NCBI GenBank assembly: GCA_965207845.1
Contig: CBDBNU010000003.1
Coordinates: 956,480-1,020,479, forward strand
Length of the DNA: 64,000 nt
Direction of reading: 5' to 3'
Source of the DNA: Dehalococcoidia bacterium
GTDB lineage: Bacteria; Chloroflexota; Dehalococcoidia; Lucifugimonadales; GCA-2712585
Shown here piece after piece: positions 4,355 to 63,626 of the stretch; the first letter of the stretch is position 1, and each line of letters starts with the position of its first letter. The notes beneath the pieces were generated by a model that saw only the letters and a program-made list of their open reading frames with translations, was not told the DNA's origin and ran no database searches. A program made the translations under genes and the position numbers.

Positions 4355-4375
4355 AACCGGAGGTTGCTGCCGGTT
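4355..4375 (-). terminator. possible hairpin terminator after the helicase-amidohydrolase gene
   Basis: AACCGG-N9-CCGGTT hairpin abutting the stop codon, followed on the minus strand by ATTTCTGACGTTTTC. Confidence 0.3.
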
Positions 4376-7300: not shown

Positions 7301-7857
7301 GGCCCCGGGATGAGTTCGCCGAAGAGGTGGTCGAAGCCCTCTTTCCTGGACAGACGCCAGGGGGTGGCCGTCATGCCCAGCACACGACCGGGCCACTGGC
7401 GCATGGCCCTCTCCCAGCCTTTGGCGACGGCGTGATGTGCCTCATCGATGATCATCAGGTCGTCCCGGTCGTAGTCCCCCCAAACGTCGTCGGCAATGTT
7501 GATGGTGCGACGTCCGACGGTCTGGGCCATGAGGATGACAGTGCCGTTGGCGATTCTGGGCGCCCTTGCTCCCGGCGTCCACCTGACGTTTTGGGTGGCC
7601 GAGACGCCCGACTGGAACAGCCTGCTCTCCGTTTGGCTGGCAAGTTCCTTGCGGTGGGTGAGCCAGACGGCCTTGCGCCCTCCGGCGAGGTATTTCGACA
7701 GGAAAGCAGCGGCAATGTCGGTCTTGCCGGCGCCCGTCGGAAGCTGCATCATCACCGGCCTTTCGCTGCTTTGGAGGGCCGTGAGGACTTTATCCAGGAG
7801 TTCCTGCTGGTATTCTCGCAGTCCGTGGGCTGTGGTTGCCGCTTGGGTAGTGGTGAT
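4375..7857 (-). CDS. SF2 (ResIII/DEAD-like) helicase with double zinc ribbon and winged-helix-like C-terminal region, fused in frame to an amidohydrolase-3 domain
   Basis: Walker A (QLPTGAGKT), DEAH box (IIDEAHH), motif VI (QMVGRGLR) and Cys-rich ribbons. The last 527 aa (ADTIILNANVITMDP...GFIDAHTHV...RIEHCS) form a complete amidohydrolase-3-type domain. Homology to the paralog at 8748..10652 continues 34 codons upstream of the track start. The 5' end is set at ATC 7857, 6 nt after AGGAGG (non-canonical and uncertain). Confidence 0.65.
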   Translation of the reverse strand: MTTTQAATTAHGLREYQQELLDKVLTALQSSERPVMMQLPTGAGKTDIAAAFLSKYLAGGRKAVWLTHRKELASQTESRLFQSGVSATQNVRWTPGARAPRIANGTVILMAQTVGRRTINIADDVWGDYDRDDLMIIDEAHHAVAKGWERAMRQWPGRVLGMTATPWRLSRKEGFDHLFGELIPGPQIRDLQAQRFLCPAQVVLPDEENRIAGGNIGSTGDYTETGIEAANDSGGVLTALAIKFWQEYAADRQTIMYAVSVAHADNLAALLQEQGIPAAAIHARTDAPARAQAIDSFSHGRLRVLINVAIATEGFDLPDASCVVIARPTKSLSLYLQMVGRGLRPKEQGGNCLILDLAGNALEHGLPEDDREWSLTARGEADEGEPPVVMCNECQSASPAGSHLCGHCSAPFGEDCPRCGKWRAFSHWSLDGKCGFSHERVCNLCHKDAHQQADLPAIPGIYAFEYTGEETAANGNGSYALEDPAILDPALVTALEEIGGEGKVKDVIRRTAEILYEIEGRRHGVITRGTELEHDGLSSVDAQEERIVAMREHMLSHSSETERQLLISHYRLADFSDTDVQSAIRQAYKRLERAGRCDPNAGWGVWRLNGNGHGPGKDVFLHTPDRGLADTIRADTIILNANVITMDPASPSAGAIAIKDGRFLAVGADEDLAPFRNSATEILDAEGGTVLPGFIDAHTHVMSSGLRHVAEEDCDLRSIGEIQEALKVRTVTTASGEWVRGFKFDDTKTSEQRFLHRRDLDAVSCEHPIMVAHQAGHVYFFNSLGLRRAGFSDDTPDPHGGRLGRDTETGKLNGRVYGAAIYPVLQKVLPRHTDEDRRSGLDLICRMFAEAGLTSVHDAMVSIDDLRVYQQARDEGDLPLRVYLLMYRDHFPALRDAGIRSGLGDERLRIGGIKMVADGAIATRTAYLSQPYVGSCCDHGLAVMDAEETEHRVLEAHKAGFQVCIHSNGDEAIDMVVTAYEKAQEAFPRKDPRHRIEHCSVVNPDLLRRIKAAGCVVTPFCSYVYYHGEKMRFYGEERLKWMFAQRSFIDHGINSTGAADYPCSPLPPLMGIQSCVTREDYNGQVWGPEQRITVEEALKLYTINGAYASFEEDLKGSIEPGKLADLVILGDDPRTVNPRSIMDIPVLRTIVGGETVYQRD

Positions 7858-19068: not shown

Positions 19069-20697
19069 CTACGACGCCTCCCGAATCCGCAGCATCAGCA
19101 AGTCCCCCTCCTCCCACGGCTGCGATTCCACCACCCACGAATACGCCCCCACCCCATCGTCAACCTCCGCGTCATCAACAACCAACGACAACGACACGCT
19201 CCCATCCAGCTCTATAAACTCCAACGCATACCCGAACAGCGACGCGTGGGGACTCAGCGTCAGCACCACCTCGTTGTTCTCCCACTCCAACCCCGTCATC
19301 TCCGTCAACGCGCCGCCTACGGTGAATGACGCGGGACTGAGCACCCCGTTGGTCCCGTCGGCCCCCACCCCTGTGCCAATAGCCACAGGGTCGAAGAACG
19401 CCTCGTGCAGCGTGTACAGAGGGGCCTCGACCGTGACTTCATACTTACTGTAACCGTCTGTGGGTTTGAAATTGCAGACCATTTTCTTGTAACCCTGTTG
19501 GTGGAAGTTCACCGAATATAGGCCTGCAGGGAGAGGACGTTTTGTGGTCTCAACATAATAATATCCATTGGACGGGACATCGTCGTTATCAACTACATAC
19601 TCTTGGAAAAGCTCAGAATCAGGGCCGCTAGTCCAATAAGAATTATACTGAATGCCATGAACTTCTTTTGATTTGTAGAATGGGTCCGCTTGTGGATCTT
19701 TCCCAGAAACGATAGTTGCCTCATATTCGGTTGGGGTCCAGTCGCGATAATATCGCTCCCTGGTCAGCATGGAGTAGATGCAGTCCGCATAGCCCTCAAT
19801 GCCTTCTCCCGCCGCTAGCATCGCGTCAACCTCGCCGATGCGGGTGCGCAGGCTGGAGAGAGAGACCACAGGGGAGGGAGTCTCAGAACCGTCAGTGATG
19901 TACTCTGGGTCGGCGGTGCCTGTTTCGCCGGTGGCCCCACCTGTGGGCGCGTCCTTCGCCGGCAGCCACGCCCTGCTTAGGGTATCAATGGAGTATTCAA
20001 AACTAGACTGTACCGATGGATGAGCTGAGAGGAATCTGAGGATAGGGGTGGACTCAGCCCCGACATCTCCCGAGGCTTCTTCCTCAGATGAGGGTGGCGC
20101 CGCAAGGGGTCCGAATAGAAAGAGAACCCCGGACTTGTCATCGTAGGCAGTATTGCGCTGGGATACCAGTGCGCTTGCCGCAGTCATCGCATCCGCCTCT
20201 GTGAGGTAACCTTCATAGCGACTTCCCCCGATGTACACGCCGCCTGAGTAATCCAGCACTTCCACGACGAACTCGTCAGGGCCTGTTCCCTTCAGGTACT
20301 CATCTGCCCTGAATCTCAGCACCTGCTTGGGTTGATAGGTGGGAGCCACACCTTCATCCCCTGAAATGGTCTGCACTCCCGCCGCCACGGATAGCAGGGA
20401 CGCGACAACGATGACGTCGGAGTCCAGAATCTGCTGGTCTAAGGAGGGAGGAACCAACCAAATGGGATTGATATGAGCATACTGAACCTGTGGGCTTTGT
20501 GGGATTGGCTGGGGAGGGCGAAGGGTAGGTGCAGGGGTTTTCGCCGGCGTAGGCGCCGGCGCTTGCGTTGCCATCGGGATCGCCGCCGCCGTCGTGGGCG
20601 TTGCCGTCGGGGTTGGGGTGTCAAGCCCGTCGGAACGGCAGGCAGCTAATGCCATCGCCATCAGCAGGATTGCGGCTATCAGAATTGATTGCTTCAT
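19069..20697 (-). CDS. hypothetical lipoprotein with Pro/Thr/Ala-rich linker
   Basis: Signal peptide with lipobox (LAAC) followed by a PT-rich linker. The remainder was not recognised. Confidence 0.6.
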   Translation of the reverse strand: MKQSILIAAILLMAMALAACRSDGLDTPTPTATPTTAAAIPMATQAPAPTPAKTPAPTLRPPQPIPQSPQVQYAHINPIWLVPPSLDQQILDSDVIVVASLLSVAAGVQTISGDEGVAPTYQPKQVLRFRADEYLKGTGPDEFVVEVLDYSGGVYIGGSRYEGYLTEADAMTAASALVSQRNTAYDDKSGVLFLFGPLAAPPSSEEEASGDVGAESTPILRFLSAHPSVQSSFEYSIDTLSRAWLPAKDAPTGGATGETGTADPEYITDGSETPSPVVSLSSLRTRIGEVDAMLAAGEGIEGYADCIYSMLTRERYYRDWTPTEYEATIVSGKDPQADPFYKSKEVHGIQYNSYWTSGPDSELFQEYVVDNDDVPSNGYYYVETTKRPLPAGLYSVNFHQQGYKKMVCNFKPTDGYSKYEVTVEAPLYTLHEAFFDPVAIGTGVGADGTNGVLSPASFTVGGALTEMTGLEWENNEVVLTLSPHASLFGYALEFIELDGSVSLSLVVDDAEVDDGVGAYSWVVESQPWEEGDLLMLRIREAS

Positions 20698-20915: not shown

Positions 20916-22211
20916 GTGCGCGAAATGCCTTCCAGGGGCGCCAGAAAAGGGATCTTCTATGGCTGGTGGATAGTCCTCATCGGCCTGCTTGTCAACGCCG
21001 TCCCCGCCGGTCTCTACTTCATCGGCTTTGCCGTCCTCTTTCTCCCCATCACCCGGGACCTGGGCATGAGCCGCGCCGCCGCATCCCTGCCCTTCTCCCT
21101 CACCCGGGGGATTTCGGCGGTGCAGAGCCCCCTCATCGGCATCGCCATCGACCGATACGGTCCGGGACGCGTACTCTTTTTCTGCTCCCTCTTCGCCGGA
21201 CTCGGCTTTATTCTGCTCAGCCGCGTCGACTCGTACCTGACCTATTTTCTGGTTGTCCTGCTGGTGCTTTCGCCGCCGATCATGGGCGGCTTCGACTCCA
21301 CTTCCATCACGGCCACCTGCCGCTGGTTCATCCGAAAGCGGGGAATGGCGCTGGCCATCACCGTCCTGGGCTTCTCCATCGGTGGCGCAGCCATTCCGCC
21401 CATACTCTCAATCTCCAGCGACGTCTATGGATGGAGGACTACACTGCTGGCCGCGGGCCTGTTGATGTGGGTGCTCTATCTACCCCTCAGCACTCGAATG
21501 TACAGCTCCCCGGAGGAGCGGGGCCTGCTGCCCGACGGCGACCCTCCGCCGGACGGAGACGACTCTCCCGAATCCGCGTCCCGTCCCCCACCGCCCCGCA
21601 ACTCCATTGTGCACGAGGGGATGAGCCCCGGTGAGGCCTTCCGCACTCCCACCTACTGGATTCTCTCCCTCTCCCTGGCCATGCGCGGCATGGTCTTCAC
21701 CGCCATCGCCATCCACGTCGTCGCAATCATGGTCTGGAAGGGCATCGACGAAGGGACAGCCGGACTGCTCATCTCCTTCATGTCCATGGCGTGGCTGCCC
21801 ATCTCCCTGCTTATGGGCTGGCTGGGCGACCGGTGGGAGAAGAAATACGTGGCCGGAACGGGGGCAATCATCGCCGGCCTGGGGATGTTCAGTCTCGCCT
21901 TCTGGGACCAGGTGGGGCCGTGGCAGATGGTCGTAATCTTCGTCATGTGGGCCTTCAGCGAAGGCGGCCTTCCCCTCGGCTGGGCCATGCTGGCGGACCA
22001 GTTCGGACGTCGCAGCTTCGGCGTCCTGCGGGGAGGCATCATGGCCACCTTCAGCGTTCTGGGCCTTGGGACGCCCCTCTATGCGGGCTGGGTTTTCGAC
22101 GCCACCCAGAGCTATTTCTGGGCAATTATCCCCGCTGGTGCGCTTCTCGTCGCGGCGGGACTGCTGGGCTGGGCCATGCCCCGGCTGGATACCGCCACCA
22201 CCCAAAGCTGA
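20916..22211 (+). CDS. MFS transporter
   Basis: About 12 hydrophobic segments with a central Pro/Asp-rich loop. Start is GTG 20916 or ATG 20925. Confidence 0.8.
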   Translation: MREMPSRGARKGIFYGWWIVLIGLLVNAVPAGLYFIGFAVLFLPITRDLGMSRAAASLPFSLTRGISAVQSPLIGIAIDRYGPGRVLFFCSLFAGLGFILLSRVDSYLTYFLVVLLVLSPPIMGGFDSTSITATCRWFIRKRGMALAITVLGFSIGGAAIPPILSISSDVYGWRTTLLAAGLLMWVLYLPLSTRMYSSPEERGLLPDGDPPPDGDDSPESASRPPPPRNSIVHEGMSPGEAFRTPTYWILSLSLAMRGMVFTAIAIHVVAIMVWKGIDEGTAGLLISFMSMAWLPISLLMGWLGDRWEKKYVAGTGAIIAGLGMFSLAFWDQVGPWQMVVIFVMWAFSEGGLPLGWAMLADQFGRRSFGVLRGGIMATFSVLGLGTPLYAGWVFDATQSYFWAIIPAGALLVAAGLLGWAMPRLDTATTQS

Positions 22212-22428
22212 TATAGCGACGGGTTGTGCCAATGGGGGCGTTGACCCTCGGTGTCCCAAGGCTGGAAGGTGTAGATTCTTGGCTCTCACCACCATCCATG
22301 GAAACCTTTCCGTCTTGATGTGCGTATTATCTGGTGTAAGGGGAAATCAAGAATTTGATAACATGTCCTGACGGGGCCTTTCATGGCCCCACCCTTGAGC
22401 CAAATGCCAGTTGGGAGAAATAGATTAC

Positions 22429-25194
22429 ATGAAGCTGCCCCTCGCCCTGGTTTCCGCCGCCGCGATAGTGCTGATTATCGTCTCAGTTATGGTGTTCGTG
22501 CTGGTTACCAACGATGGTCCAACAGAAACTCCGCTGGCGACGCCCGTCGCCACGCCCGCGCCGACCCCCTTGCCGCCGCCGCCGACACCCGCGGCCACGC
22601 CGGTCCCCACCCCGGAACCAACGCCGACGCCCACGCCAACACCAGGGGTCACGCCGTTCCCCACGCCCCCACCGACCGTGACGCCAACGCCTGTGCCGGA
22701 GCCGACACCGCCGCCCATCGTTGAAGCGGTTAACCCGCTGCGGGTGGGCGACACGGCGCCGGACTTCGACCTCCTGGATGCCGACGGCACACCTACGTCC
22801 CTGTATTCCACGCTCTCATTGTATGACGCGGTGGTGGTCGTGTTCTACCGGGAATTCTCTTGAGGCATCTGCCAGTCGCAGCTCGGTGAGTTGCAAGAGG
22901 TCTACACGGATTTCAAAGCCCTGAACGCAGAAATTTTGGCTATCAGCAAGGACGATGTCGCTCACGCCGCTGAAATGCGGGCATTGCTGGGCGCGGAATA
23001 CGTCATACTCGCGGACCCCTCAGGCGTCGTCGTCAAGTCTTACGGCGTGGACGACCTGCTGAGCGACGGCCTTGCCGCCCCGTCAACCTTTATTGTCGGG
23101 TCTGACGGCGTGGTCCGCTGGGCCTACGTCGCGCAGGACGACTCAGACCGGCCCTCCGCGGCGGAGACGCTGGCGGCCCTCGTAGACACCGCTCCGTCCG
23201 CCAGGTACATCCTCTTTGAAGACTCGACCCTCGGCATATCCTTCATGCACCCCGAATCATGGACCTCCATCCCGATTGAGGCAGGCAACGGAGAGGAAGT
23301 CGACGACGCCATGGAAGAAGGATCCCCCTGGGCGATTCTTGAAGCGGAAGACGGCGTCACCCTCCAGATTATGCTTGAGTTCAACAGCCCCGGCTCCGAC
23401 CAGCGCCCAACATTGGCGGGCACCATTGAGTCGCTCCTGCCGGAGGGCGGCGTCCCGTCCCCGGGGGACCTGCGCTACTTCGACCTGGAAAGCGGCGACC
23501 CCGCAGTTCGCGCCGACCTGCTCTTCGAATCGGACGCCGGCGACACGAGAACCGTCATCCAATCCGCCATGCGGGGCGCGGCGACCTTCGTTGTCGTCGC
23601 GTCCGGCCCCGCCGAAGCGTTGGACGCCCAGCAGGAGGCCATCGACACCGTTTTCGACACCCTAACCACGTCCGTGCCTGCGCCCTACGGCATCGACCGC
23701 AGCACGGCCTTCACCATGCCCCTGGGCGAACCCAGGACCCTCGACCCCCACGTCTCGAGGGAGACCACGTCCCACTTCTACGTCTCCAGCATCTTCAGCG
23801 GTCTGGTGAAGCTGGGCGAGGGCTTGGCAGTCGTGCCGGACCTGGCTGAATCCTGGGAGGTCGACGAGTCCGGCGCCGTCTACACCTTCACCATCAGGGA
23901 CGACATCACCTTCCACGATGGCAGGCCCATCACCGCCGCCGACTTCAAGTACTCCATCGAGCGGGCCACGGACCACGAACTGCACAGCGACACCGCGCTC
24001 CTCTATCTTTCCGACATCGTCGGTGCGCGGGAGAAGCTGGACGACGAAGCAGAGGAAGTCTCGGGCGTCGTGGTGGTCGACGACCGCACCCTCCAAATCA
24101 CCATCGATTCGCCCAAGGAGTATTTCCTGGCCAAGCTCACCTACCCCACCAGCTACGTGGTGGACTCTGCCTCCATCGAAGGGCAGGGCGAAGAGTGGTG
24201 GCGCGCGGAACCGCTGAACGGCTCCGGCCCCTACACCCTCCACACCTGGGACGCTGAAGAAGTCCTCATCCTCAAGCGATTCGACGGCTACTACCAGCCG
24301 CCGCAGATGCAGCACATCATCTCCCCCTTTGCCGCCCTCCCCGGCGCCAACGGCAGGCACATGTACGAGTCCGGCTACTGGGACGGCATCTACATCCGAT
24401 TGTCCTCCGTGGACCGCCTCAGGGCCGACGAAGCGCTCGGCAGCCACGTGCAGCAATTCGAACAGCTGGTGAGCTACTACGTTGGCATCGACGCCGACAA
24501 GGCGCCGCTTGACGACCCCATGGTACGTCGCGCCCTGGCGATGTCCGTGGACCGGCAGAAGCTCGTCGACGAACTCTTCGGCGGCAACGTTCAACGGGCC
24601 GAAGGTCTTCTTCCGCCGGGCCTTCCCGGCTTCTCCGAAGACCTGCAGGGCATCACCTTCGACCCCGCGGAAGCAAAGCGGCTGCTCGCCGAGTCGAGGT
24701 ACGGCGAGGACCTCCCCGAAATTACGTATCTGGCCACCGGCTCTGAAGGTGAACCGTCGTCCATAGTCCGGTTCCTGGTCGACTCATGGGAGGAGAACCT
24801 GGGCGTGACCGTGAAGCTGAACCTGGTGGATTCGGAGGAATACTACTACCACCTGGAGGAGCAGGAGGGGCACCTGTTCACCTACGGCTGGGTGGCCGAC
24901 TACCCGGACCCGGAGAACTTCCTGGACCTGCTACTGCACTCCGAGTCCCACGACTCCCGCTACGCAAACCCGGTCTTTGACGGCCTGCTGGAGCTGGCGC
25001 GGTTGACCCAGGACCGTGAGATCCGCCTGAGCCTGTACGCGCAGGCGGAGCAGCTGCTGGTGGACGACGCGGGGATTATCCCCCTCTTCCACACCCAGGA
25101 ATACGCCCTCATCCAGCCCTACGTCAGGAACTTCACCGTCGGCCCCGTGGGCCAGCCGGTAATCGCCAACGTGGAGCTCGAAGGCGGGCCGTAG
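22429..25194 (+). CDS. exported redoxin (AhpC/TSA-like)-SBP family 5 fusion protein with in-frame TGA at 22861..22863 (candidate selenocysteine; otherwise a pseudogene)
   Basis: Domain order is signal/TM, PT linker, redoxin domain, about 200-aa middle domain, family-5 solute-binding domain. The two track ORFs (22411..22863 and 22891..25194) share one frame and are separated only by the TGA. The frame reads [19 protein letters not shown], where homologues have FYRG.WCP.C. Confidence 0.5.
22878..22894 (+). promoter_or_regulatory. candidate bacterial SECIS-like hairpin
   Basis: GCAGCU-CGGUG-AGUUGC: a 6-bp stem (one G-U pair) with a 5-nt G-containing loop. It starts 15 nt after the UGA, and the loop lies about 24 nt from the UGA. 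Confidence 0.3.
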
Positions 25195-25268: not shown

Positions 25269-25291
25269 GGGGCGGGTTTCAAACCCGCCCC
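25269..25291. repeat. REP-like palindrome GGGGCGGGTTTCAAACCCGCCCC
   Basis: 23-nt palindrome with 11-bp arms that overlaps the vapC stop codon. Confidence 0.8.
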
Positions 25292-25725
25292 TGCGTTGTG
25301 TTCCCCCAATCGTCCACCAACTCAATTCGGTACCCGTAGCGTCGGAAGTCTGCCACGTTCAGAGTCAACAGCCGGTGTTCTCCGTGGGCAAGCATGGTAG
25401 CCACGATGTTGGCGTCGTGAATCTGACTTCCCCCGACCGGGGTTTCCCGACACAATGTAGTCAACGATTCGGTTACCCACGGGCCGTCCTCCAATATGTC
25501 GAAGGTCTGGATAAATCGATTCACGTCGTCAAGCGCATCGTTAATGGAAATGGCCAACAGCCAAGTCTGCGGCCTGGTGACCACTGACAAATACTCGCGT
25601 AGAACTTGCCTGCTGATTCTCACCGGTTCTTCCTGAAAGGCTCTCCCCAGCCTGATCCTCGCCATGTGATGATCCGGCGCTTCCCGGATCCGAGCATTGA
25701 CGAGTACGTTTGTGTCTATAAACAT
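25279..25725 (-). CDS. vapC: PIN-domain toxin VapC
   Basis: MFIDTNVLVNA... N-terminus and conserved acidic residues. 148 aa. It follows a small upstream partner gene after an 8-nt gap. Confidence 0.85.
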   Translation of the reverse strand: MFIDTNVLVNARIREAPDHHMARIRLGRAFQEEPVRISRQVLREYLSVVTRPQTWLLAISINDALDDVNRFIQTFDILEDGPWVTESLTTLCRETPVGGSQIHDANIVATMLAHGEHRLLTLNVADFRRYGYRIELVDDWGNTTQGRV

Positions 25726-25733
25726 AGAGCGGA

Positions 25734-26159
25734 TTATACTCCAGACTCGTACATATCCCGTCGGCTGAGACTCAGGCCTTCTGGCCAGCCTCCAGCGCTG
25801 TGAACAGGCAGAACCTGGTCCAGGGTGGGTTTGCGTGGATCCATTGATTGGCGTGAACGTCGCAGCAGCAGAGTCTCAGCCTCCAAATCCACGTTTGCCG
25901 TTTCCCACCCGGCCGCTATCCATGCCAGGGCTTGGCTGTGACCGCCGCTCTTCTGATTCGCCCACCAGGGGCGGTGGCGCCGAGCGGAATCGGGGAGGCG
26001 GAAACCCAGAATCGCTTCAATTTCTCTGAAGGATGTCAACCACTGCCCGTCCTCTTTATCGCACAAATGCGTATAAAGCCTCCTGTACTTGCTCCTGGAC
26101 GCCATTTCCTGATACATATTGAGCGCTTCTTTGGACATCTTGACGTTTCTCCTGTTCAA
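25734..26159 (-). CDS. putative VapB-type antitoxin with N-terminal extra domain (start uncertain)
   Basis: Position immediately upstream of vapC. The C-terminal ...GWPEGLSLSRRDMYE resembles antitoxin tails seen with PIN toxins. The N-terminal domain was not recognised with confidence. Confidence 0.5.
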   Translation of the reverse strand: MNRRNVKMSKEALNMYQEMASRSKYRRLYTHLCDKEDGQWLTSFREIEAILGFRLPDSARRHRPWWANQKSGGHSQALAWIAAGWETANVDLEAETLLLRRSRQSMDPRKPTLDQVLPVHSAGGWPEGLSLSRRDMYESGV

Positions 26160-28425
26160 ATAGTGTTAGTACCTACTTAGTATCTTATAGTTAGTTCGAA
26201 GCGTCAATGCCCCTTTCCACCATTTGCATCCCCCACCCCTCCCTCTGCATAATGACGGGTGATGCCGAAACACATCAACCACAACAATCCGAAGTTCCGC
26301 GAGGCTGCCGCCGAAATCCTGCGTCGCCACGATAGCGGCGAGGCGGAGGCGAACATCACCACCGCCGTCCGGGACTTCCTTGTCGTCACCGGCCTCGCGA
26401 GGGCCCACGAGATTGTTGAGGAAAAGCACCCCGCCCTCGACTCCCGTCAGGCCGTGGATCTGGCGGCTCTCGACACCTTCATCGAATTCAAGCGTCGCAT
26501 CGGCTCCACCGGCGGCATGGACCCCAACCCCGAATACGTCGACCAGCTTGACCACTACCTGGAGCAGTCCCACAGGCAGGGCCGCGTCCGCATGGGCGTC
26601 CTCACCGACGGCAAGCACTGGCTGCTCCGCTGGCCCAACGCCGGCCCCGTGAAGCCCACCCTCCCTTACGCCTTCACCCTGGATGGCCCGGACGGGTGGA
26701 TTCCCCTCTACGACTGGCTGCGGGACAACGCCCTGAACGCCGAGGAGAACGTAGCCCCCGACCGTGGCACCATCCCTGAACGTTTCGGCCCGAAGAGCAC
26801 CCGCTATGAGCAGGACATCGCCGTCCTCAAGTCCCTCTATCAGCGCAACAAGCGCGCCAAGACCATCAGCGTCAAGACCCAGCTGTGGCGCAACCTGCTC
26901 ATGGCCGCCCTCGGCGAGGTCGCCAGCACCGAAGCGAAAATGGACGACCTCTTCGTCCGCCACACCTACCTCACCGCCGTCATCGGCATGGTGGTGCAGG
27001 CCCGCTTCGGCATCGACGTCAGGGAGCGGGCGGAGAACGACCCCGCGGACCTGCTCTATGGCCGGGAGTTCCGCAGCAAGACGGGCCTGCAGGGGGTGGT
27101 GGAGTCGGACTTCTTCGCCTGGCCCACCGAGGTCGATGGCGGCCTCCCCTTCCTCAAGACCCTCGCCCGCCGCGTCGCCCGCTTCGACTGGCAAATGGCC
27201 CCCAACGACGTTGCGTCCATCCTCTACGAGACCGTCATCCCGCCGGACGAACGCCGCCAGCTTGGCGAATACTACACCCCCGACTGGCTGGCGCGGACGA
27301 TGGTCCGGGAGGTGGTGACGGACCCCTTCGAGCAGTCCGTCCTCGACCCCGCCTGTGGCTCCGGGACCTTCGTAGCCGAGGCCGTAACCCACCTCATCGA
27401 GACCGCCAGAGACCGCCGCATGAGCGGCAAGGAAACGTTGGACTGGCTCCGCATTCAGGTTGCAGGCATCGACGTTCATCCCGTGGCCGTCCACCTCGCC
27501 CGCGCCGCCTGGGTGCTGGCCGCCTCGCCAGCCATTCAGGACGCCTTAAGCGAGGGCTTTCAGAGCAGCATCACCGTCCCCATCTACCTTGGGGACGCGC
27601 TGCAGCTGCGCTATCGCTACCGTGCAGGGGACATGTTCGATGAGAAGGAAGTGACAATCCAGGTGAACGACGAACAAAACACGGAGCTTGTCTTCCCCGT
27701 GAGCCTGATCGACAGGGCGGAGGACTTCGACGCGCTGATGGGGGACGTTTCCGAGTCGATCGAAAAGGGAGAACACCCCTTTGTGTACCTGGACGACCAC
27801 GGCATCAAGGCAGGGACTTCCGAAAGGGAGATACTGGAAGCGACCATCGACACGCTTCAGAGGCTGCACAACGAAGGGCGCAACCACATCTGGGCCTACT
27901 ACACCCGCAACCTGGTGCGCCCCGTGGCCCTCTCCCGCAGCAAGGTGGACGTGGTCATCGGCAACCCGCCCTGGCTCAACTACAACAAGACCGCCAGCAC
28001 CCTGCGCACGGAACTGGAGCGGCAGAGCAAGGACGACTACGGCATCTGGCAGGGTGGAATTTACGCCACCCACCAGGACGTTGCCGGTCTGTTCTTTGCC
28101 CGATGCGTCGACCTCTACCTGAAGGACGGCGGCGTCATCGGAATGGTGCTGCCTCACAGCGCGTTACAGACGGGGCAGTACGCCAAGTGGCGCAACGGCA
28201 CCTGGAGACCGAGGCGATACCTGCCGGACTTCACCGTCAAGTTCGATTACAAAATGGCCTGGGACCTTGAGGGGCTTGAACCAAACGACTTTTTCCCCGT
28301 TCCGGCCTCCGTGGTGTTCGCGAAACGCTCGGCGAAGATTGGAGATGCGACGCCCCTTGTCGGAAAGGTGGAACGCTGGCTAGGCAAGCCGGGCCTGGAC
28401 GCCAACAGGAGCGCCCGATTCATCA

Positions 28426-28433
28426 TTACTGAT
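28426..28433. repeat. target-site duplication TTACTGAT (left copy)
   Basis: Identical 8-mer directly flanks both IRs (right copy at 31090..31097). Confidence 0.85.
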
Positions 28434-28463
28434 CGGAATAAGTAGTTAGGGGCTTATTGTATC

Positions 28464-30143
28464 TCAAGAACCAGTCCCTGGCAAGCGGGGCTGGCGTTCA
28501 TGGCGGCCCAATACCCACGGCGTCTCAAACCGTTTGCCTTCCAGTATCTCCCCAACTGTGAGTATCTGCAACTTTGGGTACTCCGCTGGCCCTATCTTCA
28601 GCAACCCAGCATCTGCCATGAAGTTGTTGAAGTTCCGGGCCTTAGGGACTCCCAGGGGATGAAGCACTATCAGGCCGCCTAGAAGGGCCTCGTCATTATC
28701 CAGGACGCCTTTCAAGGCCCTCAAGTCCCTTATGTTAACGTTCCGTCCGCCCTTCACTTCTATCACCATGCTTTGAATGTCTGGGTTACCCGGCACGTCA
28801 AAGTACAGCCGGCCGTCAATGCCGCCGTCCGCCGTTCTCTTGGAAGTGACGAACCCATCCACCATCTCCACCGCCCACTGTTGGAAGTGGTACGTGTCCC
28901 GCTTCCACAAGTCCTGTGCGGCCTCTACGGAAGATGGTACCCCGCTGACCTGGAAATCCTTACCTTCCTCCAGTCCCAGCCGTTCTCTGAGCCTTTGTCG
29001 GGTCACCCGATTGATGCAGTGGAACGCTATGTCTATGCCTATCCATTTCCGCCCCAACTTGTGGGCCGCCTCTATGGTGGACGCACAGCCGCAGAAAGGG
29101 TCTAGCACCACGTCCCCGGGGTTGGAGGACGCTTTTATGATTCGCTCCATCAAAGATACGGGCTTTTGAGTAGCGTACCCTATACGTTCTTTTGCTTGCG
29201 AATTTATCGGCGCGATGTCCCAAACAATATCTCTAATCGGTATACCTTTGCCCATGCTCAGATAGCGTTTGTAGGACGGCATGAACCCTCGCATTGGCCA
29301 ATAAATCAGATCTGACTCATCCAACACGTCTAACCGTTCTTGTACCGTCAATGTCTCGTAGTTGGGTGGCGGGTCAAAGTGCGGGGGTAATCGCCGTCGT
29401 GTCGGAACGGCCCAGTGGCGCCCCTGTTCCGTAGGGTCTATCCCGCGCCAAGGCTGTCCTGACTCGCCGCGGGTAGTTCCTGGGCCGGTTAGTCCGTCAT
29501 CCCTGAATCGCCCATGTTTGTCTCTGTAGCGGTAGTGACTGTCAATATATTTTGGGTCATACGCTTCATAAATTTCGTTCCAGGTATAGGCATTCGCTTT
29601 GGTATAAAAGAGTACCGTATCGTGGATAGGCGCCCATTTCTTCGCCCCTCCATGGGCGGCCACCCTCCGCCAGATTATTTCACTGCGGAAATTGCGGTGT
29701 CCAAAGATAGCATCGAGGAAGGGCTTTACATAGTGGGAAACTGTGGGATCGCAATGAAAGTAGAGGCTTCCCGTGGACTTGAGAATTCGCCGCATGATTA
29801 ACAGGCGTTGCGCCATATATGATAGGTACGCCAAGAGACGAGGCTGCGTCTTCCTTAGAGCGTTCATCCATAGTCGCCAAAATTCGGTTGTTGCATCATC
29901 TACGCCGCTATCCCGCATCAGAACGGGGATGGTCCTAATCTCTCTCTCCCGGTCTGGGGTCAGCTCCCACATATCGTTGAAGGCGTCCACCTGGTCGGGG
30001 AGGGGGCGCCCTGTTTCGTCCTTATAGATGCTGTTGTATTGACGCTGGGAATTGAAGGGTGGGTCTAGGTAAATCAGGTCAACGCTGGCCAGCGGCATGT
30101 CCAGCATGATGGTTAAGCAGTCGCCATAATAGAGTTGGTTCAT
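28464..30143 (-). CDS. beta-class N4/N6 DNA methyltransferase with C-terminal Mrr-like PD-(D/E)xK domain (passenger gene of the IS)
   Basis: Motif IV DPPF (IYLDPPFNS) precedes motif I (VLDPFCGCAST). The C-terminus has GGIDG...IEVKGG, a restriction-endonuclease-like pattern. The ATG at 30143 overlaps the transposase stop (ATGA). Confidence 0.8.
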   Translation of the reverse strand: MNQLYYGDCLTIMLDMPLASVDLIYLDPPFNSQRQYNSIYKDETGRPLPDQVDAFNDMWELTPDREREIRTIPVLMRDSGVDDATTEFWRLWMNALRKTQPRLLAYLSYMAQRLLIMRRILKSTGSLYFHCDPTVSHYVKPFLDAIFGHRNFRSEIIWRRVAAHGGAKKWAPIHDTVLFYTKANAYTWNEIYEAYDPKYIDSHYRYRDKHGRFRDDGLTGPGTTRGESGQPWRGIDPTEQGRHWAVPTRRRLPPHFDPPPNYETLTVQERLDVLDESDLIYWPMRGFMPSYKRYLSMGKGIPIRDIVWDIAPINSQAKERIGYATQKPVSLMERIIKASSNPGDVVLDPFCGCASTIEAAHKLGRKWIGIDIAFHCINRVTRQRLRERLGLEEGKDFQVSGVPSSVEAAQDLWKRDTYHFQQWAVEMVDGFVTSKRTADGGIDGRLYFDVPGNPDIQSMVIEVKGGRNVNIRDLRALKGVLDNDEALLGGLIVLHPLGVPKARNFNNFMADAGLLKIGPAEYPKLQILTVGEILEGKRFETPWVLGRHERQPRLPGTGS

Positions 30144-31020
30144 GCCGGAGCCGCGACGGTAGACCGCAAGAAGGCGTTGAACGGGTCCGAAACCTTGCGG
30201 ATGTTGTACTTGAAGGCGGCTTCTGCAACGTACAGAAAGGCGTTGGCCCTGGAGTAGTGGTGATGGGAGCCGTACCAGGCCCTCTTTAAGAGGCTCCAAA
30301 AGCCCTCGATGGTGTTGGTGTGAACCATTCCATCAACGTACTGCTTGGAGTGGTCTACAGTGGCATGGCGGACGTAACGGCGCATTGGCCGATAGGCGGG
30401 GTAGGCGTCGGTGATAAGTAGGCTTGCGTCCTCGTCAATGTGACGATTCAGGAAGCTGGTTATGGCCTTGGCGTCAACCTTGATTGAAGGTTCGGCAACA
30501 ACTCTCCCCCCCTCTCAACTGCGCCAAGGATGGGGAGCTTGTCAGTACCACGCCCAGGGAGTGAAGGGCGGAAATCAGCCCGCTTGTTGGGCCGACGGGG
30601 CTTCCCGCCCACGTACGCTTCATCAGCCTCTACCAGGCCGGTCAGAAGCTCCCTCTCCTCTACCATTGCGCGCCTGATGCGTTCCTGCATGTATAGGGCT
30701 GACTTCTGGTTCATATCCAGGTCTCGGGCCAACTGGTGGGAGCTTAGGGACTTCTTGGCATTCAGCATCAGGGATATCCCCAGGAACCAGCGTTGAAGGT
30801 CAATTTTCGTCTTCTGGAATATTGTACCGGAGAGGACGTTGAAGCTAGAATGACAACTATGGCAATTCCAGCGGCCCACCCTATGACCGTCGGCCTTGCG
30901 GCCCACCGAAGTCTTGCCACAGTGCGGGCAAGTGGGCGTGTCACCCCATCGTAGTTGCTCCAGATGTTCGATGCAGGATTCATGGGTTGGAAAGCGTTGG
31001 AAGACTTCAATCAGATTCAT
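30140..31020 (-). pseudogene. IS1595-family (ISXO2-like) transposase, frameshifted at a G7 run
   Basis: The N-terminus has CPHCG...WNCHSCHSSF zinc ribbons. The C-terminal part (..LLITDAYPAYR..HTNTIEGFWSLLKR..) is in another frame. The frames join at the homopolymer 30506..30512, and an 8th G would restore one ORF. Confidence 0.75.
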
Positions 31021-31067
31021 GGTGTACCCCCTATGTGGGTATACTACCAAAACCCTTATCCCTTGTC

Positions 31068-31089
31068 AAGCCCCTAACTACTTATTCCG
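31068..31089. repeat. IS right terminal inverted repeat
   Basis: AAGCCCCTAACTACTTATTCCG is the exact reverse complement of 28434..28455. Confidence 0.85.
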
Positions 31090-31097
31090 TTACTGAT
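31090..31097. repeat. target-site duplication TTACTGAT (right copy)
   Basis: Identical to 28426..28433. Confidence 0.85.
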
Positions 31098-32147
31098 ACG
31101 TCTATACAAGGTGAGTCGCCATACTCTGTTCTGTCCCGAAATGGGGCCACCATATGTCCCCGGGTATTGTTCTTTGTCAATGAGGCAACCAACACCGCCA
31201 TCATACAGGCGGGCCAAACAGTAACGTTAAACCCTCGCCGAGGGCGCTACGATAAGGAACCGTGGCGCAGTCAGGACTTGAGCGCCATAACCGGCTAGAC
31301 CATTGAAATTAACCACCTTTTTGATGTCCATCTAGGAGAGACCGTTGCGCCCTATGTTACGCTCACTCCCCTCAAGGCAGTCTTGCCCATGAAGACGGGC
31401 GAATGCAAGATTCCGGTAGACAAAGGTGGGGTTAGTAGGGTTCGCCTTGGCGGCCTTGAACGACGGATGCGAGACCGCTGGCGAACTATCACGCGCTTAT
31501 GGGAAAAGAACAAGTCGGCGGCAAACAAGCTAGATTTGCTAGGTCAGTTGGACTACTTCGGCAAACTATCGTCGCAACTAGAGTGGCAGGGGGATACAGG
31601 AACACGGAATATTCGCGTACTGTACAACGGATCAGGAGCACCTACGGCCGCTTTACTTGAGGGTGATAATACGCTCGTTGACTATACGTTGTTCTGGATC
31701 ACCTGCAAGGAATTAGGCGAGGCACACTATCTTCTTTCCATAATCAACAGCGATAAATTGAGAGAAGCTGTAACCCCTCTAATGCCCAAGGGCCAATTCG
31801 GGGCGCGACACCTGCAAAAACACCTGTGGAAGCTGCCGATACCGGAGTTCGACGCCGACGTCCCGCTCCACGTCGAGATATCCGAGGCCGGGAAAGCGGC
31901 GGCGACAGGCGCGGCCCAGCGTCTGTCGGAACTCCGCGCCGAACGCGGCGACAACGTCTCCGTCACCATCGCCCGCCGCGAACTCCGCGCCTGGCTCCGA
32001 ACGTCGCCCGAAGGGGCGGCGGTGGAGGGGGCGGTGGGGCGGCTGTTGGGGTAGGGGGTTATGTTGCGTGATTGATTGCATCCCGCTACAATGCCTCTGC
32101 CTTGACCGCTGCCTTTGTGGCAAGGCGAGGTAATGTAAGGTTGCAAG

Positions 32148-32187
32148 TGCCTAGGTGGGCAACGGGTTCGCCTAGGCATTTTATTTT
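32148..32187 (+). terminator. rho-independent terminator-like hairpin
   Basis: TGCCTAGG-N15-CCTAGGCA followed by TTTTATTTT. Confidence 0.45.
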
Positions 32188-32203
32188 ATTGGGGAAAGAG
32201 GAT

Positions 32204-32308
32204 ATGAAAAGCAGATTTCTTGTAAACAAGACTGATGACCCGTTTGTCAGAGGCGCACCACCCCCATCACCAAGGCCTCGACCGGCGCCGAAGCCTCCGA
32301 AGAAGTAA
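32204..32308 (+). CDS. possible 34-aa proline-rich basic peptide (very uncertain)
   Basis: GAAAGAGGA then 4 nt then ATG. Translation is MKSRFLVNKTDDPFVRGAPPPSPRPRPAPKPPKK. It overlaps the convergent 3' end of 32247..32789 by 62 nt. Confidence 0.15.
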   Translation: MKSRFLVNKTDDPFVRGAPPPSPRPRPAPKPPKK

Positions 32309-32789
32309 GGACCTTCCAAGCCCAGAGAGCCCAAAAGACTAACTCCACAAACAAGAATACCGCGGCCCAATTCACAAGCGCGTGTTTCTTATTAATCGTG
32401 CTCATTGTCGTCTCAAAATTGCGGCCTGCTCGCTGTATCATCTTCAGTTGAAACTCATTTGGGCGCAGCCTGATCAACGCACCCTCGTCCCTTGCTTTGG
32501 TCAAATTAGAGGGATGTGGCAGTTGGATTCCTTTGTAGTATCTGGTTCGGTACAGTATTCCGATAAAGACAATGAACGAAACCATTGCTAGAATTGGGAA
32601 TAACCAACCACTGAATAGACTCCCATCGTCATTTAGGGCACTGATTATGATTGGAACAGCCAAGGTAACAGTTGTTCCAAGTGTTGCAAACTGGTTTATT
32701 CGGTCTTCAACAGATTCGAATCGTCGCAACATGAAATCATAAGATGGCAAGACGTAATCATGCGCGATGTCAATAGTAGTTCTTTCCAT
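32247..32789 (-). CDS. hypothetical 3-TM membrane protein in a low-GC islet
   Basis: 180-aa ORF with three clear hydrophobic helices. Local GC is clearly below the flanking DNA. No family recognised. Confidence 0.55.
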   Translation of the reverse strand: MERTTIDIAHDYVLPSYDFMLRRFESVEDRINQFATLGTTVTLAVPIIISALNDDGSLFSGWLFPILAMVSFIVFIGILYRTRYYKGIQLPHPSNLTKARDEGALIRLRPNEFQLKMIQRAGRNFETTMSTINKKHALVNWAAVFLFVELVFWALWAWKVLTSSEASAPVEALVMGVVRL

Positions 32790-32890
32790 AATTACCCCAC
32801 TGGTCTGAAGTCAATTTCTGCCTTCATTATATTTCGGACGGTGGATGTCTTCCAAATCAATGCTCATTTGAGACCCCGCGCCCCCCACAT

Positions 32891-32986
32891 GTCATTCTGA
32901 ACGCAGCGCAGCGGAGTGAAGAATCTCGTTGCCATTGACGCCCAACTCCTGCGAGATTCTTCGTCGCGGGGCCTCCTCAGAATGAC
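32891..32986. repeat. inverted pair of the 34 to 37-nt intergenic repeat (GTCATTCTGA...GAAGAATCTC / GAGATTCTTC...TCAGAATGAC)
   Basis: Arms at 32891..32927 and 32953..32986 share conserved 10-nt termini in inverted orientation. The right arm matches 2580..2613. Confidence 0.7.
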
Positions 32987-33078
32987 AGCTAAAGCGGGCA
33001 AACGTCTACCGGTGTATAATCCAAAACAGACATCCCACAATCCCCCAACAAATCCCTCGCCAACAGATAGAGTGAGCC

Positions 33079-33471
33079 ATGACCGCAAACTCAGATAACC
33101 AGGAACGCCTCACCACAACCAAGCAGCACCAAGTCGCCGAAAGTCCAGCTTCGGACCCCGCAGGAGACTACTACAACCGCGCCATCGCCTCCCTTAAGCG
33201 GTCGGAGTGGGACAAGGCCTGCGCCGACCTCTCAGCCGCCGTCGAACGAGGCTTGGACGTCGCCGCCACCTTCATCGAAACGTACAAGAGCGCCGGCGAC
33301 TTCGAGGATTCCTTCGACGTAGAACTGCCGGGAGACATCGCAGACATCGTCGACCCCATCAGCGAAGAAGAAGACGCTGCTCTGGCCAGACTAACCGAAG
33401 AGGGCCTGGATTCTGAACTGGTCAGCGAAGAGTGTGTAATGGCCATCCTCAGAGGTGAGGATGGAGGTTGA
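33079..33471 (+). CDS. putative antitoxin partner of RelE (atypical, acidic C-terminus)
   Basis: 130 aa. Its stop overlaps the RelE start region and it has an acidic C-terminal tail. No RHH or HTH motif recognised. Confidence 0.45.
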   Translation: MTANSDNQERLTTTKQHQVAESPASDPAGDYYNRAIASLKRSEWDKACADLSAAVERGLDVAATFIETYKSAGDFEDSFDVELPGDIADIVDPISEEEDAALARLTEEGLDSELVSEECVMAILRGEDGG

Positions 33472-33718
33472 GCAGAGGGCAACCTTCATTCGTGACCTGC
33501 GACGACTGCGTAATGGGGACATTCTCAACAGGCTTCACCGGAAGATCAAACAGTTGGAGCAAGCTTCCAGCATTTCTCAAATCTCAGGACTTCGGAAACT
33601 GAAATCCTCTCGGAATATATTCCGCGTCAGAATAGGCAACCATCGTTTGACCTTCGCAGTTGAAGGCAGCAGCGTGCAGTTGATTAGGTTCAGGCATAGG
33701 CGGGACGTTTATAGGTAA
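33461..33718 (+). CDS. relE: RelE/ParE-family toxin
   Basis: ...FRVRIGNHRLTFAVEGSSVQLIRFRHRRDVY is the canonical RelE/StbE C-terminal pattern. Start is ATG 33461 or GTG 33455. Confidence 0.8.
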   Translation: MEVEQRATFIRDLRRLRNGDILNRLHRKIKQLEQASSISQISGLRKLKSSRNIFRVRIGNHRLTFAVEGSSVQLIRFRHRRDVYR

Positions 33719-40125: not shown

Positions 40126-41592
40126 CTAGCCACCGGGACGGGGCGCGAGACCCAGCGACTCACGCCAGCCGGTTTCCAGGGAGTCGAAGTCCAACCCGTA
40201 GACCTGACGGATTGCCTTCTCATCTGTGGAGCCTCGGGAGAATACCGCAAGAAGCTCCTGCATTTTTGTCCAGCCGTAGGTATCCAGCAGGTAGTTGACC
40301 AGGCTGTAGCTCTGGGCGTAGGACAGAATGGCCCCCGTATGGTCGGCGGGGAAGCTGCTGTTAAGGCTTCGCAGGCTGATTAGATCGTCGTTGGCGATAG
40401 CGTCGGCGAGGGCGACCCTCTGGGATTCGGTCGGAACACCTTCGGCATAGACTGCCAGACCCTCGTTCAGCCAGGTGGGCAGACCTCTAAAGCAGTTGAA
40501 GGTGACTTCTTCCACAAGCAGGTGTGTCAGCTCGTGGACCACTCCCTGCAAGTCGATGTCGAACCGGGCCGGGTTCACGGTAATCAGGATGATATTGTGG
40601 CGAACGTAGGCCAGGCCGCCGGTCCACTCCTGGGCGAAAAGCACCGCTCCGCGAACGTCGTCGGAACTTTCGTAGACGAAGACCCTGATGGGCTCGACCA
40701 GTTCCTGGCCCAAGACCAGGGAGTCGAGACCGGTGCGGACGCCTTCAGCAATGCGACGGCCGAAATCGTCGCCGCCAGCGTACCAGTGGAATGTGACGTT
40801 TCCGTCGGTGTGGGACTGCCAGTCGAAGCGGGCATCCTCGAACACCGTCTCCTTGCGGGGGGTCAGGAACTCCAGGCCACTGTCGTCGGTCACTCTCCAC
40901 CGCCACCAGATTGCGGCGCCGGGCGGAATGGATCCGCTGCGCCGCATGTCCCACTCCCACATTACCGAAACCTCCTCCCCGGCCTCCAGGTCAGCCCGGG
41001 CCGTCCAGTAGGAGGTGGAGGCGCAAGAGAAGACATGCTCCGTGCCGAACTCCAAGTCAACGGTCGAGATGCTGCTTTCGCTCCGCGCCTCCATGTGAAA
41101 CAGCGCGGACTCAGGGAAATTCAGGGTCGCGTGGTTAACCGACACCTGGATGTCGGGCACGGGTGTGACGGGAGCAACGGTCGGAGGTTGGGTAGGGGAA
41201 GGTTTGGGGCTGGATGTAGGCGTTGGCGTAGGAGTCGGTGTTGAAACAGGCGCGACTGGCGTTGCTGGTGTGGGAGTTGGCGTAGAATCAGGCGCAACTG
41301 GCGTCGACGTTGTAGGCGTAGAGGTGGGCGCTGGCGTAGGAGCAGGCGGCGGCGTTACCGTCGGGAAGGGCGCCGCCTGGGTGGAGGGGATGGGCGCGGG
41401 GGTCGGAGTCGGTGGAGGCGTCACTGTCGGGAACGGCGCGGCCTGGGTCTGAGGGGCCGGCGTCGGCGTGGGGGTGGCAACGGTCGCGCGTGTCTCCGCC
41501 GGAGTGGCGAGGGGTGTCGGAGTGGGCGGGTCGCAAGCTGCCAACGCCAAGACGATGACGGCAAATGCGATGGCGTATAACAGCGCGCGCAT
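40126..41592 (-). CDS. peptidase MA-like zinc metalloprotease lipoprotein with long PT-rich linker
   Basis: Lipobox (LALAAC), about 130 aa of PT-rich linker and an HELTH (HExxH) motif. The start ATG shares one nt with the upstream stop (TGATG). Confidence 0.7.
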   Translation of the reverse strand: MRALLYAIAFAVIVLALAACDPPTPTPLATPAETRATVATPTPTPAPQTQAAPFPTVTPPPTPTPAPIPSTQAAPFPTVTPPPAPTPAPTSTPTTSTPVAPDSTPTPTPATPVAPVSTPTPTPTPTSSPKPSPTQPPTVAPVTPVPDIQVSVNHATLNFPESALFHMEARSESSISTVDLEFGTEHVFSCASTSYWTARADLEAGEEVSVMWEWDMRRSGSIPPGAAIWWRWRVTDDSGLEFLTPRKETVFEDARFDWQSHTDGNVTFHWYAGGDDFGRRIAEGVRTGLDSLVLGQELVEPIRVFVYESSDDVRGAVLFAQEWTGGLAYVRHNIILITVNPARFDIDLQGVVHELTHLLVEEVTFNCFRGLPTWLNEGLAVYAEGVPTESQRVALADAIANDDLISLRSLNSSFPADHTGAILSYAQSYSLVNYLLDTYGWTKMQELLAVFSRGSTDEKAIRQVYGLDFDSLETGWRESLGLAPRPGG

Positions 41593-54534: not shown

Positions 54535-54815
54535 TCGTTTCGGTCCGCCGGTTACCTTCGTTCCAGTCCTGCGTCTTGGGTTGGGCGAATCTTGTGATTC
54601 CTTGCTTGTATCGACTAGTTTTGTGTTTGCGGTGGGTCAGTTGTTTCTCCCGTGGGGCAGGCGCGCCAGCAATTCGTCCAAATTTTCAAGGAATTTGACA
54701 TGGTTGGCAGCTTAGGCTTACTATCCCGACGCCAAACAAGCTCTTTTCCGGGCTACTCGTGCGTTTTGTGACGATTGTCCCGACCCGAATTCACATCATC
54801 CAGGGAGGCGTAGAA

Positions 54816-60378: not shown

Positions 60379-60420
60379 GACATCGGCTGACGGGCCGTGA
60401 GCCCGTATAGGAGGCAGGCA

Positions 60421-63522: not shown

Positions 63523-63626
63523 GGCGCCGATTAAGCATTGCGGTCAAGGACTCAGAGCTGATTGCCGTGCTTCGCGGATTCGAAGAATCTCCGCCGATTG
63601 TGTGAATGCTTACACGAGGATATTGC

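Follow-up and report, generated by a model that had tools for sequence, protein, structure and literature searches.

Does a TGA triplet that interrupts a long reading frame end a protein or encode one of its residues? The question is raised by a locus in a 64,000-nt stretch of Dehalococcoidia DNA (contig CBDBNU010000003.1, positions 956,480 to 1,020,479; hereafter the window), in which a single in-frame TGA at 22861-22863 interrupts a 922-codon frame on the plus strand running from ATG 22429 to TAG 25192-25194. An earlier reading made from the letters of this DNA (the sequence-only reading) had described two open reading frames (ORFs), 22411..22863 and 22891..25194, lying in the same frame and parted by the TGA only. 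We confirmed this on the sequence: the TGA is the sole stop between them, and the translation is as first given, VVVFYREFS up to the TGA and then, over the stop, U-G-I-C. All public gene calls of the locus show two ORFs, none with a product name, and an exact look-up of the window's 767-aa ORF returned no record. Judging from the comparison of related sequences, 22429-25194 is very probably one gene for a membrane-tethered, extracytoplasmic selenoprotein fusion. With the UGA decoded the product has 921 residues, arranged as a signal anchor, a Pro/Thr-rich stalk, a redoxin domain with U145-G-I-C148, a PsbP-fold domain and an OppA-like solute-binding protein (SBP) domain.

The TGA is conserved among orthologues. 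Our comparison comprised nine of them, the window gene and those on L001-L003 and L014-L018, which are syntenic and come from independent Dehalococcoidia assemblies. A protein search led to P0001, a gene call starting just after the TGA position whose contig, L001, has TGA in that codon, and a genome scan led to L002 and L003, two Dehalococcoidia metagenome-assembled genomes (MAGs) of which the first is a closed 2.7-Mb chromosome (OY762063.1); TGA stands there in both. A second protein search gave P0009-P0013 and P0015, each call truncated at differing internal starts; the contigs L014-L018 contain one in-frame TGA each, at the identical column. A scan of metagenome contigs returned distant redoxins only and no orthologue. 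The sequence-only reading had pointed to orthologous fusions as the place where TGA or Cys should be seen, and in the codon alignment TGA stands at the identical column in 9/9 and Cys in 0/9. With amino-acid identities of 65-76% and a mean pairwise dS of about 0.8-1.7, the conservation of the TGA is far above chance, since it was kept in all nine at near-saturated synonymous sites. Nei-Gojobori dN/dS was 0.145 for the redoxin upstream of the TGA and 0.185 for its downstream part; the middle domain gave 0.33 and the SBP 0.19. TTG 22891, from which the ORF lister started the second frame, is CTG in the other eight orthologues, so that no restart after the TGA is conserved, and the layout of two genes with an independent signal peptide on the SBP was seen in none of the orthologues. 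A genome-wide reassignment of UGA was ruled out because TGA is the ordinary stop of 13 of the 45 window genes of at least 100 aa. The L001 orthologue, which lies on a low-coverage contig ('10x' in its name), has a frameshift within the SBP domain at about 1700-1815 that is probably an assembly error rather than gene decay.

The relatives of the redoxin domain tell what kind of residue belongs at this column. Distant Cys homologues (P0002-P0007) read FYRGxWCPxC, with the first Cys of the CxxC on the TGA column. Wider relatives were collected by an exhaustive HMMER search using the redoxin part downstream of the TGA as query, and they include close full-length Cys forms, namely P0149 (FYRGFFCGICRGQL / FYRGFFCGICRGQLVELQQAY; FYRGFFCGIC), P0144, P0180 and P0192. 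The TGA column is the first Cys of the CxxC in these four and in P0002-P0007, as the sequence-only reading had proposed that an alignment to Cys homologues would show. Also found were dozens of gene calls of about 100 residues that open with 'MELQEAY...', just past the TGA position. The DNA was examined for three of them, the stand-alone redoxins L020, L021 and L024, and an in-frame TGA occupies the same column in each (3/3): FYRAFW-U-VYCRAQL in L020, FYRGVF-U-GTCRSQL in L021 and FYRAFW-U-YACRQQL in L024. A lipoprotein or transmembrane anchor precedes the TGA in all three, with a long linker in L020. The redoxin subfamily thus appears to hold both Sec (selenocysteine) and Cys members, with the TGA at the first CxxC position. 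Exchange of Sec and Cys at a redox-active Cys is the classic signature of selenocysteine. Other recoding candidates surfaced among the distant redoxins, the first two of them in the scan of metagenome contigs: L008 (about 2700) has FFYPLDWTPV-TGA-SREL, a peroxiredoxin (Prx) of the TxxU form with Sec at the peroxidatic position, and L010 (about 70) has FLRHLG-TGA-LPC, a UxxC form. The call P0148 begins past one TGA and ends ...FYRGFW-stop, apparently representing two Sec redoxin domains in tandem.

The position of the export signal also bears on the question. The hydrophobic signal anchor (residues 5-26; 22441..22506), read from the translation, has no lipobox and no obvious cleavage site; the homologues P0016, P0023 and L021 have a lipoprotein Cys where the window protein has this anchor. 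It is followed by the Pro/Thr-rich stalk (residues 30-96; 22516..22716), which is found in all orthologues. The sequence-only reading had stated that the sole export signal lies upstream of the TGA and the family-5 SBP downstream, and this holds: the anchor and the Pro/Thr linker are the only such elements and both precede the TGA, while Pfam places SBP_bac_5 at residues 468-839. The anchor would consequently put the SBP outside the membrane only if the UGA were read through. Further support comes from P0014 (L019 10001-12304), which has the same synteny but no redoxin: an anchor of the same type and a longer Pro/Thr stalk run straight into the PsbP-fold and SBP domains, and the protein is 76% identical over the shared part. 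As the anchor is here joined directly to PsbP+SBP, the SBP part depends on the upstream anchor, in agreement with the earlier argument that a functional product needs read-through.

Downstream of the UGA, the sequence-only reading had noticed a hairpin with G in its loop and had judged it to fit the geometry of a bacterial selenocysteine insertion sequence (SECIS) element. This hairpin (22878..22894, plus strand) folds as GCAGCUC-GGU-GAGUUGC, with 7 bp and a 3-nt loop, 14 nt 3' of the UGA and with 21 nt between UGA and loop; it can alternatively be drawn as 6 bp with the loop CGGUG. The bSECIS model quoted in PMC13188914 allows a loop of 3-9 nt, a stem of 4-16 bp, a UGA-loop distance of 16-37 nt and a minimum free energy (MFE) of at most -7.5 kcal/mol, and asks for a G at the start of the loop (its first two positions, mostly as G[G/U]). 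All nine orthologues agree with this model: their stems have 7 bp, the loops read GGU, GGC, GGA or GUC, the distance is 21 nt and the MFE values run from -7.7 to -11.6 kcal/mol, so the judgement on geometry can be extended from the window to the whole set. The window hairpin has an MFE of -9.2 kcal/mol when folded with its flanks and of -7.7 kcal/mol as the bare 17-mer; values of -11.6 and -10.1 kcal/mol were obtained for other orthologues. The hairpin is intact in 9/9, its substitutions being confined to the loop or to a change from G-C to G-U, and the stand-alone Sec form L020 has A-U at that pair (CAA...TTG), which gives a compensatory series of G-C, G-U and A-U at synonymous sites. With the genes' own codon usage just 1.9% of the synonymous codings of SQLGELQ form the full 7-bp stem. 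The Leu codon of the stem, CTC, is invariant; gene-wide, 10% of invariant-Leu columns keep one codon. A sliding-window test on four sequences, in which 54 of 507 windows were at least as conserved as the hairpin region, is suggestive only. An Rfam scan of 22100-23100 (E <= 10) found no family; to our knowledge Rfam holds no general bacterial SECIS model, and this null says little. The hairpin could be a SECIS, and it seems to be under selection at the RNA level; by itself it is no proof. Given the conservation and the fit to the model, we propose that the UGA at 22861-22863 would be decoded as Sec, with the hairpin at 22878-22894 acting as the SECIS that recruits SelB and Sec-tRNA(Sec).

Several observations weigh against a selenoprotein fusion. 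Neither the 64-kb window nor about 170 kb of flanking DNA from the orthologous loci yielded selA, selB, selD or tRNA-Sec; ARAGORN detected no tRNA in the window or ten related loci, and a Pfam search of nearly every window ORF of at least 100 aa was negative for SelA, SelB and SelD. Our remaining doubt is due to this lack of Sec machinery in both window and flanks. The Cys form P0149/L025, which had been expected to lack the hairpin, bears the same one after a TGT codon. The hairpin is therefore shared by Sec and Cys forms and loses weight as independent proof; in the Cys form it may be the fossil of a SECIS that outlived a Sec-to-Cys change, or the QLxELQ peptide may in part give rise to it. 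The 76-nt region folds no better than shuffled sequences (z = 0.45) and stability alone is therefore no evidence, and in a comparison of 8 sequences the hairpin region does not stand out strongly by its synonymous conservation, which 27 of 336 windows equal. The relative P0154 has Trp at the column (HFWGICRAQL). Around the gene itself, no CcdA/DsbD-type electron donor lies near the fusion, and no ATP-binding cassette (ABC) permease or ATPase genes were found in the 64-kb window or the syntenic loci; such genes may have their place elsewhere in the genome. A rough screen for further read-through genes, covering the window and the loci, gave no second convincing selenoprotein gene, the leftover candidates with high GC3 being antisense frames of known genes. 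On the other side, Dehalococcoidia MAGs are recorded in BSepDB with 49 and with 46 selenoprotein genes (PMC13326102), which supports Sec decoding indirectly; the isolate name of one of them is of the UUID kind also borne by the MAGs with the orthologues. A literature search on SAR202 and selenocysteine returned nothing specific.

Part of this evidence would also suit a UGA that is read through without selenium, Trp, Cys or Arg being inserted by a near-cognate or suppressor tRNA to give the same fusion: the Sec machinery was found in neither window nor flanks, P0154 has Trp at the column, and a hairpin shared with a Cys form does not prove SelB recruitment. We consider such decoding improbable. 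The column is a redox-active Cys in homologues, the hairpin agrees with the bSECIS model, and window genes do end normally at TGA, so that efficient read-through would require a dedicated signal. A single base change would yield Trp or Cys, yet TGA is kept in 9/9 at a dS of about 1. In addition, the stand-alone relatives fall in the documented class of UxxC Prx-like selenoproteins (PMC1088965, PMC2398784). A still smaller chance is left to the TGA being a true stop, which would leave an anchored stub and a separately started, non-exported protein of redoxin fragment, PsbP and SBP domains, or else a pseudogene. All public gene calls split the locus in just this way and Sec machinery was seen in neither window nor flanks, but a stop here would sever the thioredoxin fold just before the active-site helix, and the sequences before and after it are both under purifying selection (dN/dS 0.15 and 0.19). 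Neither a start codon nor a Shine-Dalgarno sequence is conserved past the TGA, where gene callers pick differing internal starts, and the downstream part lacks an export signal while the redoxin-less orthologue and all paralogues have an anchor. A pseudogene would not retain an otherwise open 921-codon frame in nine genomes. Both the pseudogene and the two-gene reading were rejected on the TGA being kept in 9/9, the purifying selection on both sides and the absence of a conserved restart. Finally, a sequencing or assembly error turning TGC or TGT into TGA, for which low-coverage long-read contigs (ctg821584_10x, ctg159693_6x) and the L001 frameshift in the SBP part might speak, is effectively refuted by the same TGA in nine independent assemblies from varied studies and technologies, including the closed 2.7-Mb chromosome and a Tara scaffold.

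With the selenoprotein fusion as the favoured interpretation, we turn to its redox domain. Pfam was searched with a translation in which U was replaced by C, and both AhpC-TSA (PF00578, 91.1 bits, cut-off 26) and Redoxin (PF08534, 72.5 bits, cut-off 26.6) matched residues 106-247, across the TGA. Together with matches in the PDB (AhpE, Bcp, DsbE and ResA) and NCBIfam (best match a SelL-related redox protein), this delimits a Prx-like, thioredoxin-fold redoxin at residues 97-255 (22717..23193), broken by the UGA. Conservation of TGA or Cys at the column predicts selenocysteine 145 at 22861..22863 as the first residue of U-G-I-C, and Cys148 (22870..22872) as the resolving Cys of the UxxC. Cys148 is the only Cys in the 921 residues, likewise in every orthologue, and U145/C148 is therefore the only redox pair. 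The best structure matches (E ~5e-11) are M. tuberculosis AhpE (Rv2238c, 1XXU/1XVW) and Bcp/PrxQ, with which the domain shares its fold and the GIC motif. In the AhpE alignment Arg141 falls on the Pro of the PxxxTxxC motif, Sec145 on its Thr42, Cys148 on the peroxidatic Cys45 and Pro217 on the catalytic Arg. Because the Pro, Thr and Arg of Prx are replaced by Arg, Sec and Pro the redoxin is not a classical peroxiredoxin, and unlike AhpE, Bcp or PrxQ it is not expected to act as a canonical peroxidase; the canonical combination of PxxxTxxC(U) and catalytic Arg is absent and NCBIfam Prx equivalogs scored far below their cut-offs. The description of the TGA as lying on the catalytic Cys position thus stands in the thioredoxin-like CxxC sense; against a true Prx such as AhpE it does not, as Sec there aligns with Thr and it is Cys148 that aligns with the peroxidatic Cys. 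Pro217 lies in AAPSTF (23074..23091; 'aapstf' against 'anrgtf' of AhpE), a putative cis-Pro loop, which we presume by analogy with TlpA/ResA-type thioredoxin-fold oxidoreductases.

By its sequence the domain belongs to the known Prx-like UxxC type of selenoprotein. Prx-like selenoproteins were defined by distant Prx homology and a thioredoxin-like UxxC in place of TxxU (PMC1088965); the families Prx-like 1/3 are described in PMC2398784, and a table of such families is given in PMC13188914. Other names in use for the type are 'Prx-like thiol:disulfide oxidoreductase' and 'Redoxin family protein PF08534 UxxC'. The remark that UxxC Prx-like selenoproteins are known is accordingly documented (PMC1088965, PMC2398784). 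Like those described by Zhang and Gladyshev, a marine and metagenomic family, the window protein combines an AhpC-TSA/Redoxin domain, Sec as the first residue of UxxC, CxxC homologues and a downstream hairpin with G in the loop. Those proteins are single-domain or fused to small unknown Cys-containing domains, whereas the window encodes an anchored protein of 921 residues whose redoxin is followed by PsbP-fold and OppA-like domains with zero Cys in both. The stand-alone L020, L021 and L024 (with P0134-P0142 as truncated calls) resemble the redoxin of the fusion at 41-52% identity over the aligned part and share its TGA column and hairpin register; unlike the fusion they stop after the redoxin, with neither PsbP nor SBP. 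SaoB, SaoX and BtuF are likewise Sec-bearing and extracytoplasmic, being the binding proteins of transporters, but carry Sec in the binding protein itself (CUxxT, UxP, CxxU), where it is thought to contact metal or organometallic ligands (PMC13188914); the Sec of the window protein sits in a separate redoxin domain. A redoxin-PsbP-SBP5 architecture is absent among the selenoprotein fusions and families described in PMC2398784 and PMC13188914. The sequence-only reading was therefore right to call the redoxin-SBP fusion unusual, although the selenoprotein type is itself known: what is new is the fusion of a Sec-redoxin to an oligopeptide-binding module, not the selenium redox domain.

What could this protein do? 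The anchor would be oriented N-in/C-out, with the domains outside the cytoplasm on the Pro/Thr stalk. The redoxin would then be a selenol/thiol-disulfide oxidoreductase of the TlpA/ResA/CxxC type, in which Sec145 attacks and Cys148 resolves the selenenyl-sulfide. We speculate that its most likely role is redox chemistry at the cell surface beside the SBP, for example the reduction of disulfide-bonded or oxidised peptide ligands, or defence against oxidants. Nearly as likely, and as speculative, is a redoxin of independent function that merely shares the anchor. It seems unlikely that Sec-redoxin and SBP form one machine, which with its single selenol/thiol pair would reduce or transform captured disulfide-bonded or oxidised organosulfur or peptide substrates and might pass them to the adjacent major facilitator superfamily (MFS) transporter rather than to an ABC importer; if true, an MFS system would here depend on an SBP that has its own selenoenzyme domain. 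Elsewhere, at 60163-61008, the window has a gene for a small glutaredoxin (CPAC) and, immediately after it, one of the Thioredoxin_9 family, both with Cys and not Sec.

The middle domain (residues 258-425; 23200..23703) gave no Pfam match in the window protein, while the homologue P0056 bears Pfam PsbP. An AlphaFold2 model built with 89 homologues (pLDDT 82.9, pTM 0.77) was compared with the PDB by Foldseek and matched PsbP/CyanoP (E 4.5e-9 to 1e-6, TM 0.6-0.78); on this model the domain is predicted to have a PsbP / Mog1 / DUF1795-type fold. The OppA-like family-5 SBP domain occupies residues 433-921 and, with the stop TAG 25192-25194, positions 23725..25194. It scored 253 bits against Pfam SBP_bac_5, and among PDB structures it comes closest to OppA of E. 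coli and Yersinia, DppE of B. subtilis and MppA (E 2e-54 to 1e-47). Like these members of SBP family 5, cluster C, it shows SBP_bac_5 at full length (E 2e-54 against OppA of E. coli) and the GW(V/C)ADY motif, the segment GWVADYPDP pairing with GWCADYNEP of OppA. None of the NCBIfam equivalogs OppA, DppA, GsiB and NikA was reached, the best being OppA with 192 bits against a cut-off of 947. The window protein differs from OppA in that a PsbP-fold domain precedes the SBP, and in that the adjacent gene encodes an MFS protein and not an opp permease or ATPase.

This MFS transporter gene (20916..22211, plus strand) is oxalate/formate- or lactate-MCT-like, with a match to Pfam MFS_1 and matches below cut-off to NCBIfam SfMCT and OFA. 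It lies directly upstream of the fusion-type gene in L014-L016, L018 and L019, the loci whose gene calls reach upstream, and L002 and L003 have an unannotated ORF of the same size at its position. The remark that no transporter genes lie nearby is thus correct for ABC components and wrong for the MFS gene. Transporter genes number 4 among about 52 in the window. All three family-5 SBP genes of the window adjoin a secondary-transporter gene and none adjoins an ABC permease or ATPase: the fusion (22429-25194) is paired with the MFS gene 20916-22211, the SBP gene 41592-43622 (minus strand) with a CitMHS gene with TrkA-C (43700-45487, minus strand), and a third pair with an MFS gene comprises 54759-56726 and 56945-58243. 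This adjacency raises the question of how family-5 binding proteins are used here.

From an evolutionary point of view, the anchor, Pro/Thr stalk, PsbP-fold and SBP5 domains make up a large Chloroflexota family (2339 matches at E <= 1e-30), some members of which are named 'peptide ABC transporter substrate-binding protein'. Members P0014-P0127 are 45-78% identical to the window protein over the PsbP-fold and SBP5 domains and follow the same anchor and stalk design but, unlike the fusion, have neither redoxin nor in-frame TGA. The window has a paralogue of the same family at 41592-43622 (minus strand; 41% identity). The redoxin was found only in the small clade described here, and always with TGA. 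Since P0014/L019 is without it, in a shared synteny of FMN_dh, MaoC-like, OCD, two CoA-transferases, AsnC, MFS, the fusion-type gene, NYN and Amt, the Sec-redoxin is a modular insertion (or in L019 a deletion) between stalk and body. The PsbP+SBP part would be the ancestral, self-sufficient module, as suggested by hundreds of Chloroflexota homologues without redoxin, and the Sec-redoxin may plausibly have come from anchored UxxC redoxins that stand alone, like L020. Gain or loss of the redoxin in a syntenic gene offers a natural with/without comparison for surface selenium chemistry in substrate capture. Split and unnamed gene calls hide the selenoprotein from annotation; its recognition adds an extracytoplasmic, membrane-tethered, multi-domain member to the selenoproteome of bacteria and of marine Dehalococcoidia, which are now reported as rich in selenoproteins.

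At the 5' end of the gene, the ORF had been listed from TTG 22411. While the frame is correct, ATG 22429 is probably the real start, and we prefer it because the spacing GAGAA-N7/8-ATG is kept in 9/9 orthologous loci; in the window the Shine-Dalgarno sequence GGGAGAA and the start ATG 22429 span 22413..22431 (plus strand). Alignment of the nine orthologous upstream regions also revealed a conserved intergenic, promoter-like motif on the plus strand at 22323..22364 (CGTATTATCTGGTGTA ... TTTGATAACAT). Its consensus is CGTAyTATCTtGTGTAt-N12-TTTGATAtCAT with GGAAC upstream, and in the nine loci it lies about 65-110 nt 5' of the start. The motif may serve as a promoter or operator; it went uncalled in a scan for consensus promoters.

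Downstream of the fusion lies a variable island (25279-33718) with a PIN toxin, DUF7662, an IS1595-type transposase fragment, a ParE toxin and two DNA methyltransferases (N6_Mtase/Eco57I-like and N6_N4_Mtase). Its content differs at each orthologous locus, with NYN and Amt conserved beyond it. The longest ORF of the window (4375-7755, minus strand, 1126 aa) combines ResIII/DEAD/Helicase_C (1-311) with Amidohydro_3 (647-1123), and may be one unusual fusion or else two genes that a simple ORF rule has run together. Large predicted lipoproteins with long Pro/Thr-rich linkers and no Pfam domain are encoded at 19069-20697 (minus strand), 61657-63519 (plus strand) and 63606-64000 (plus strand), and share their style of anchoring with the fusion protein.

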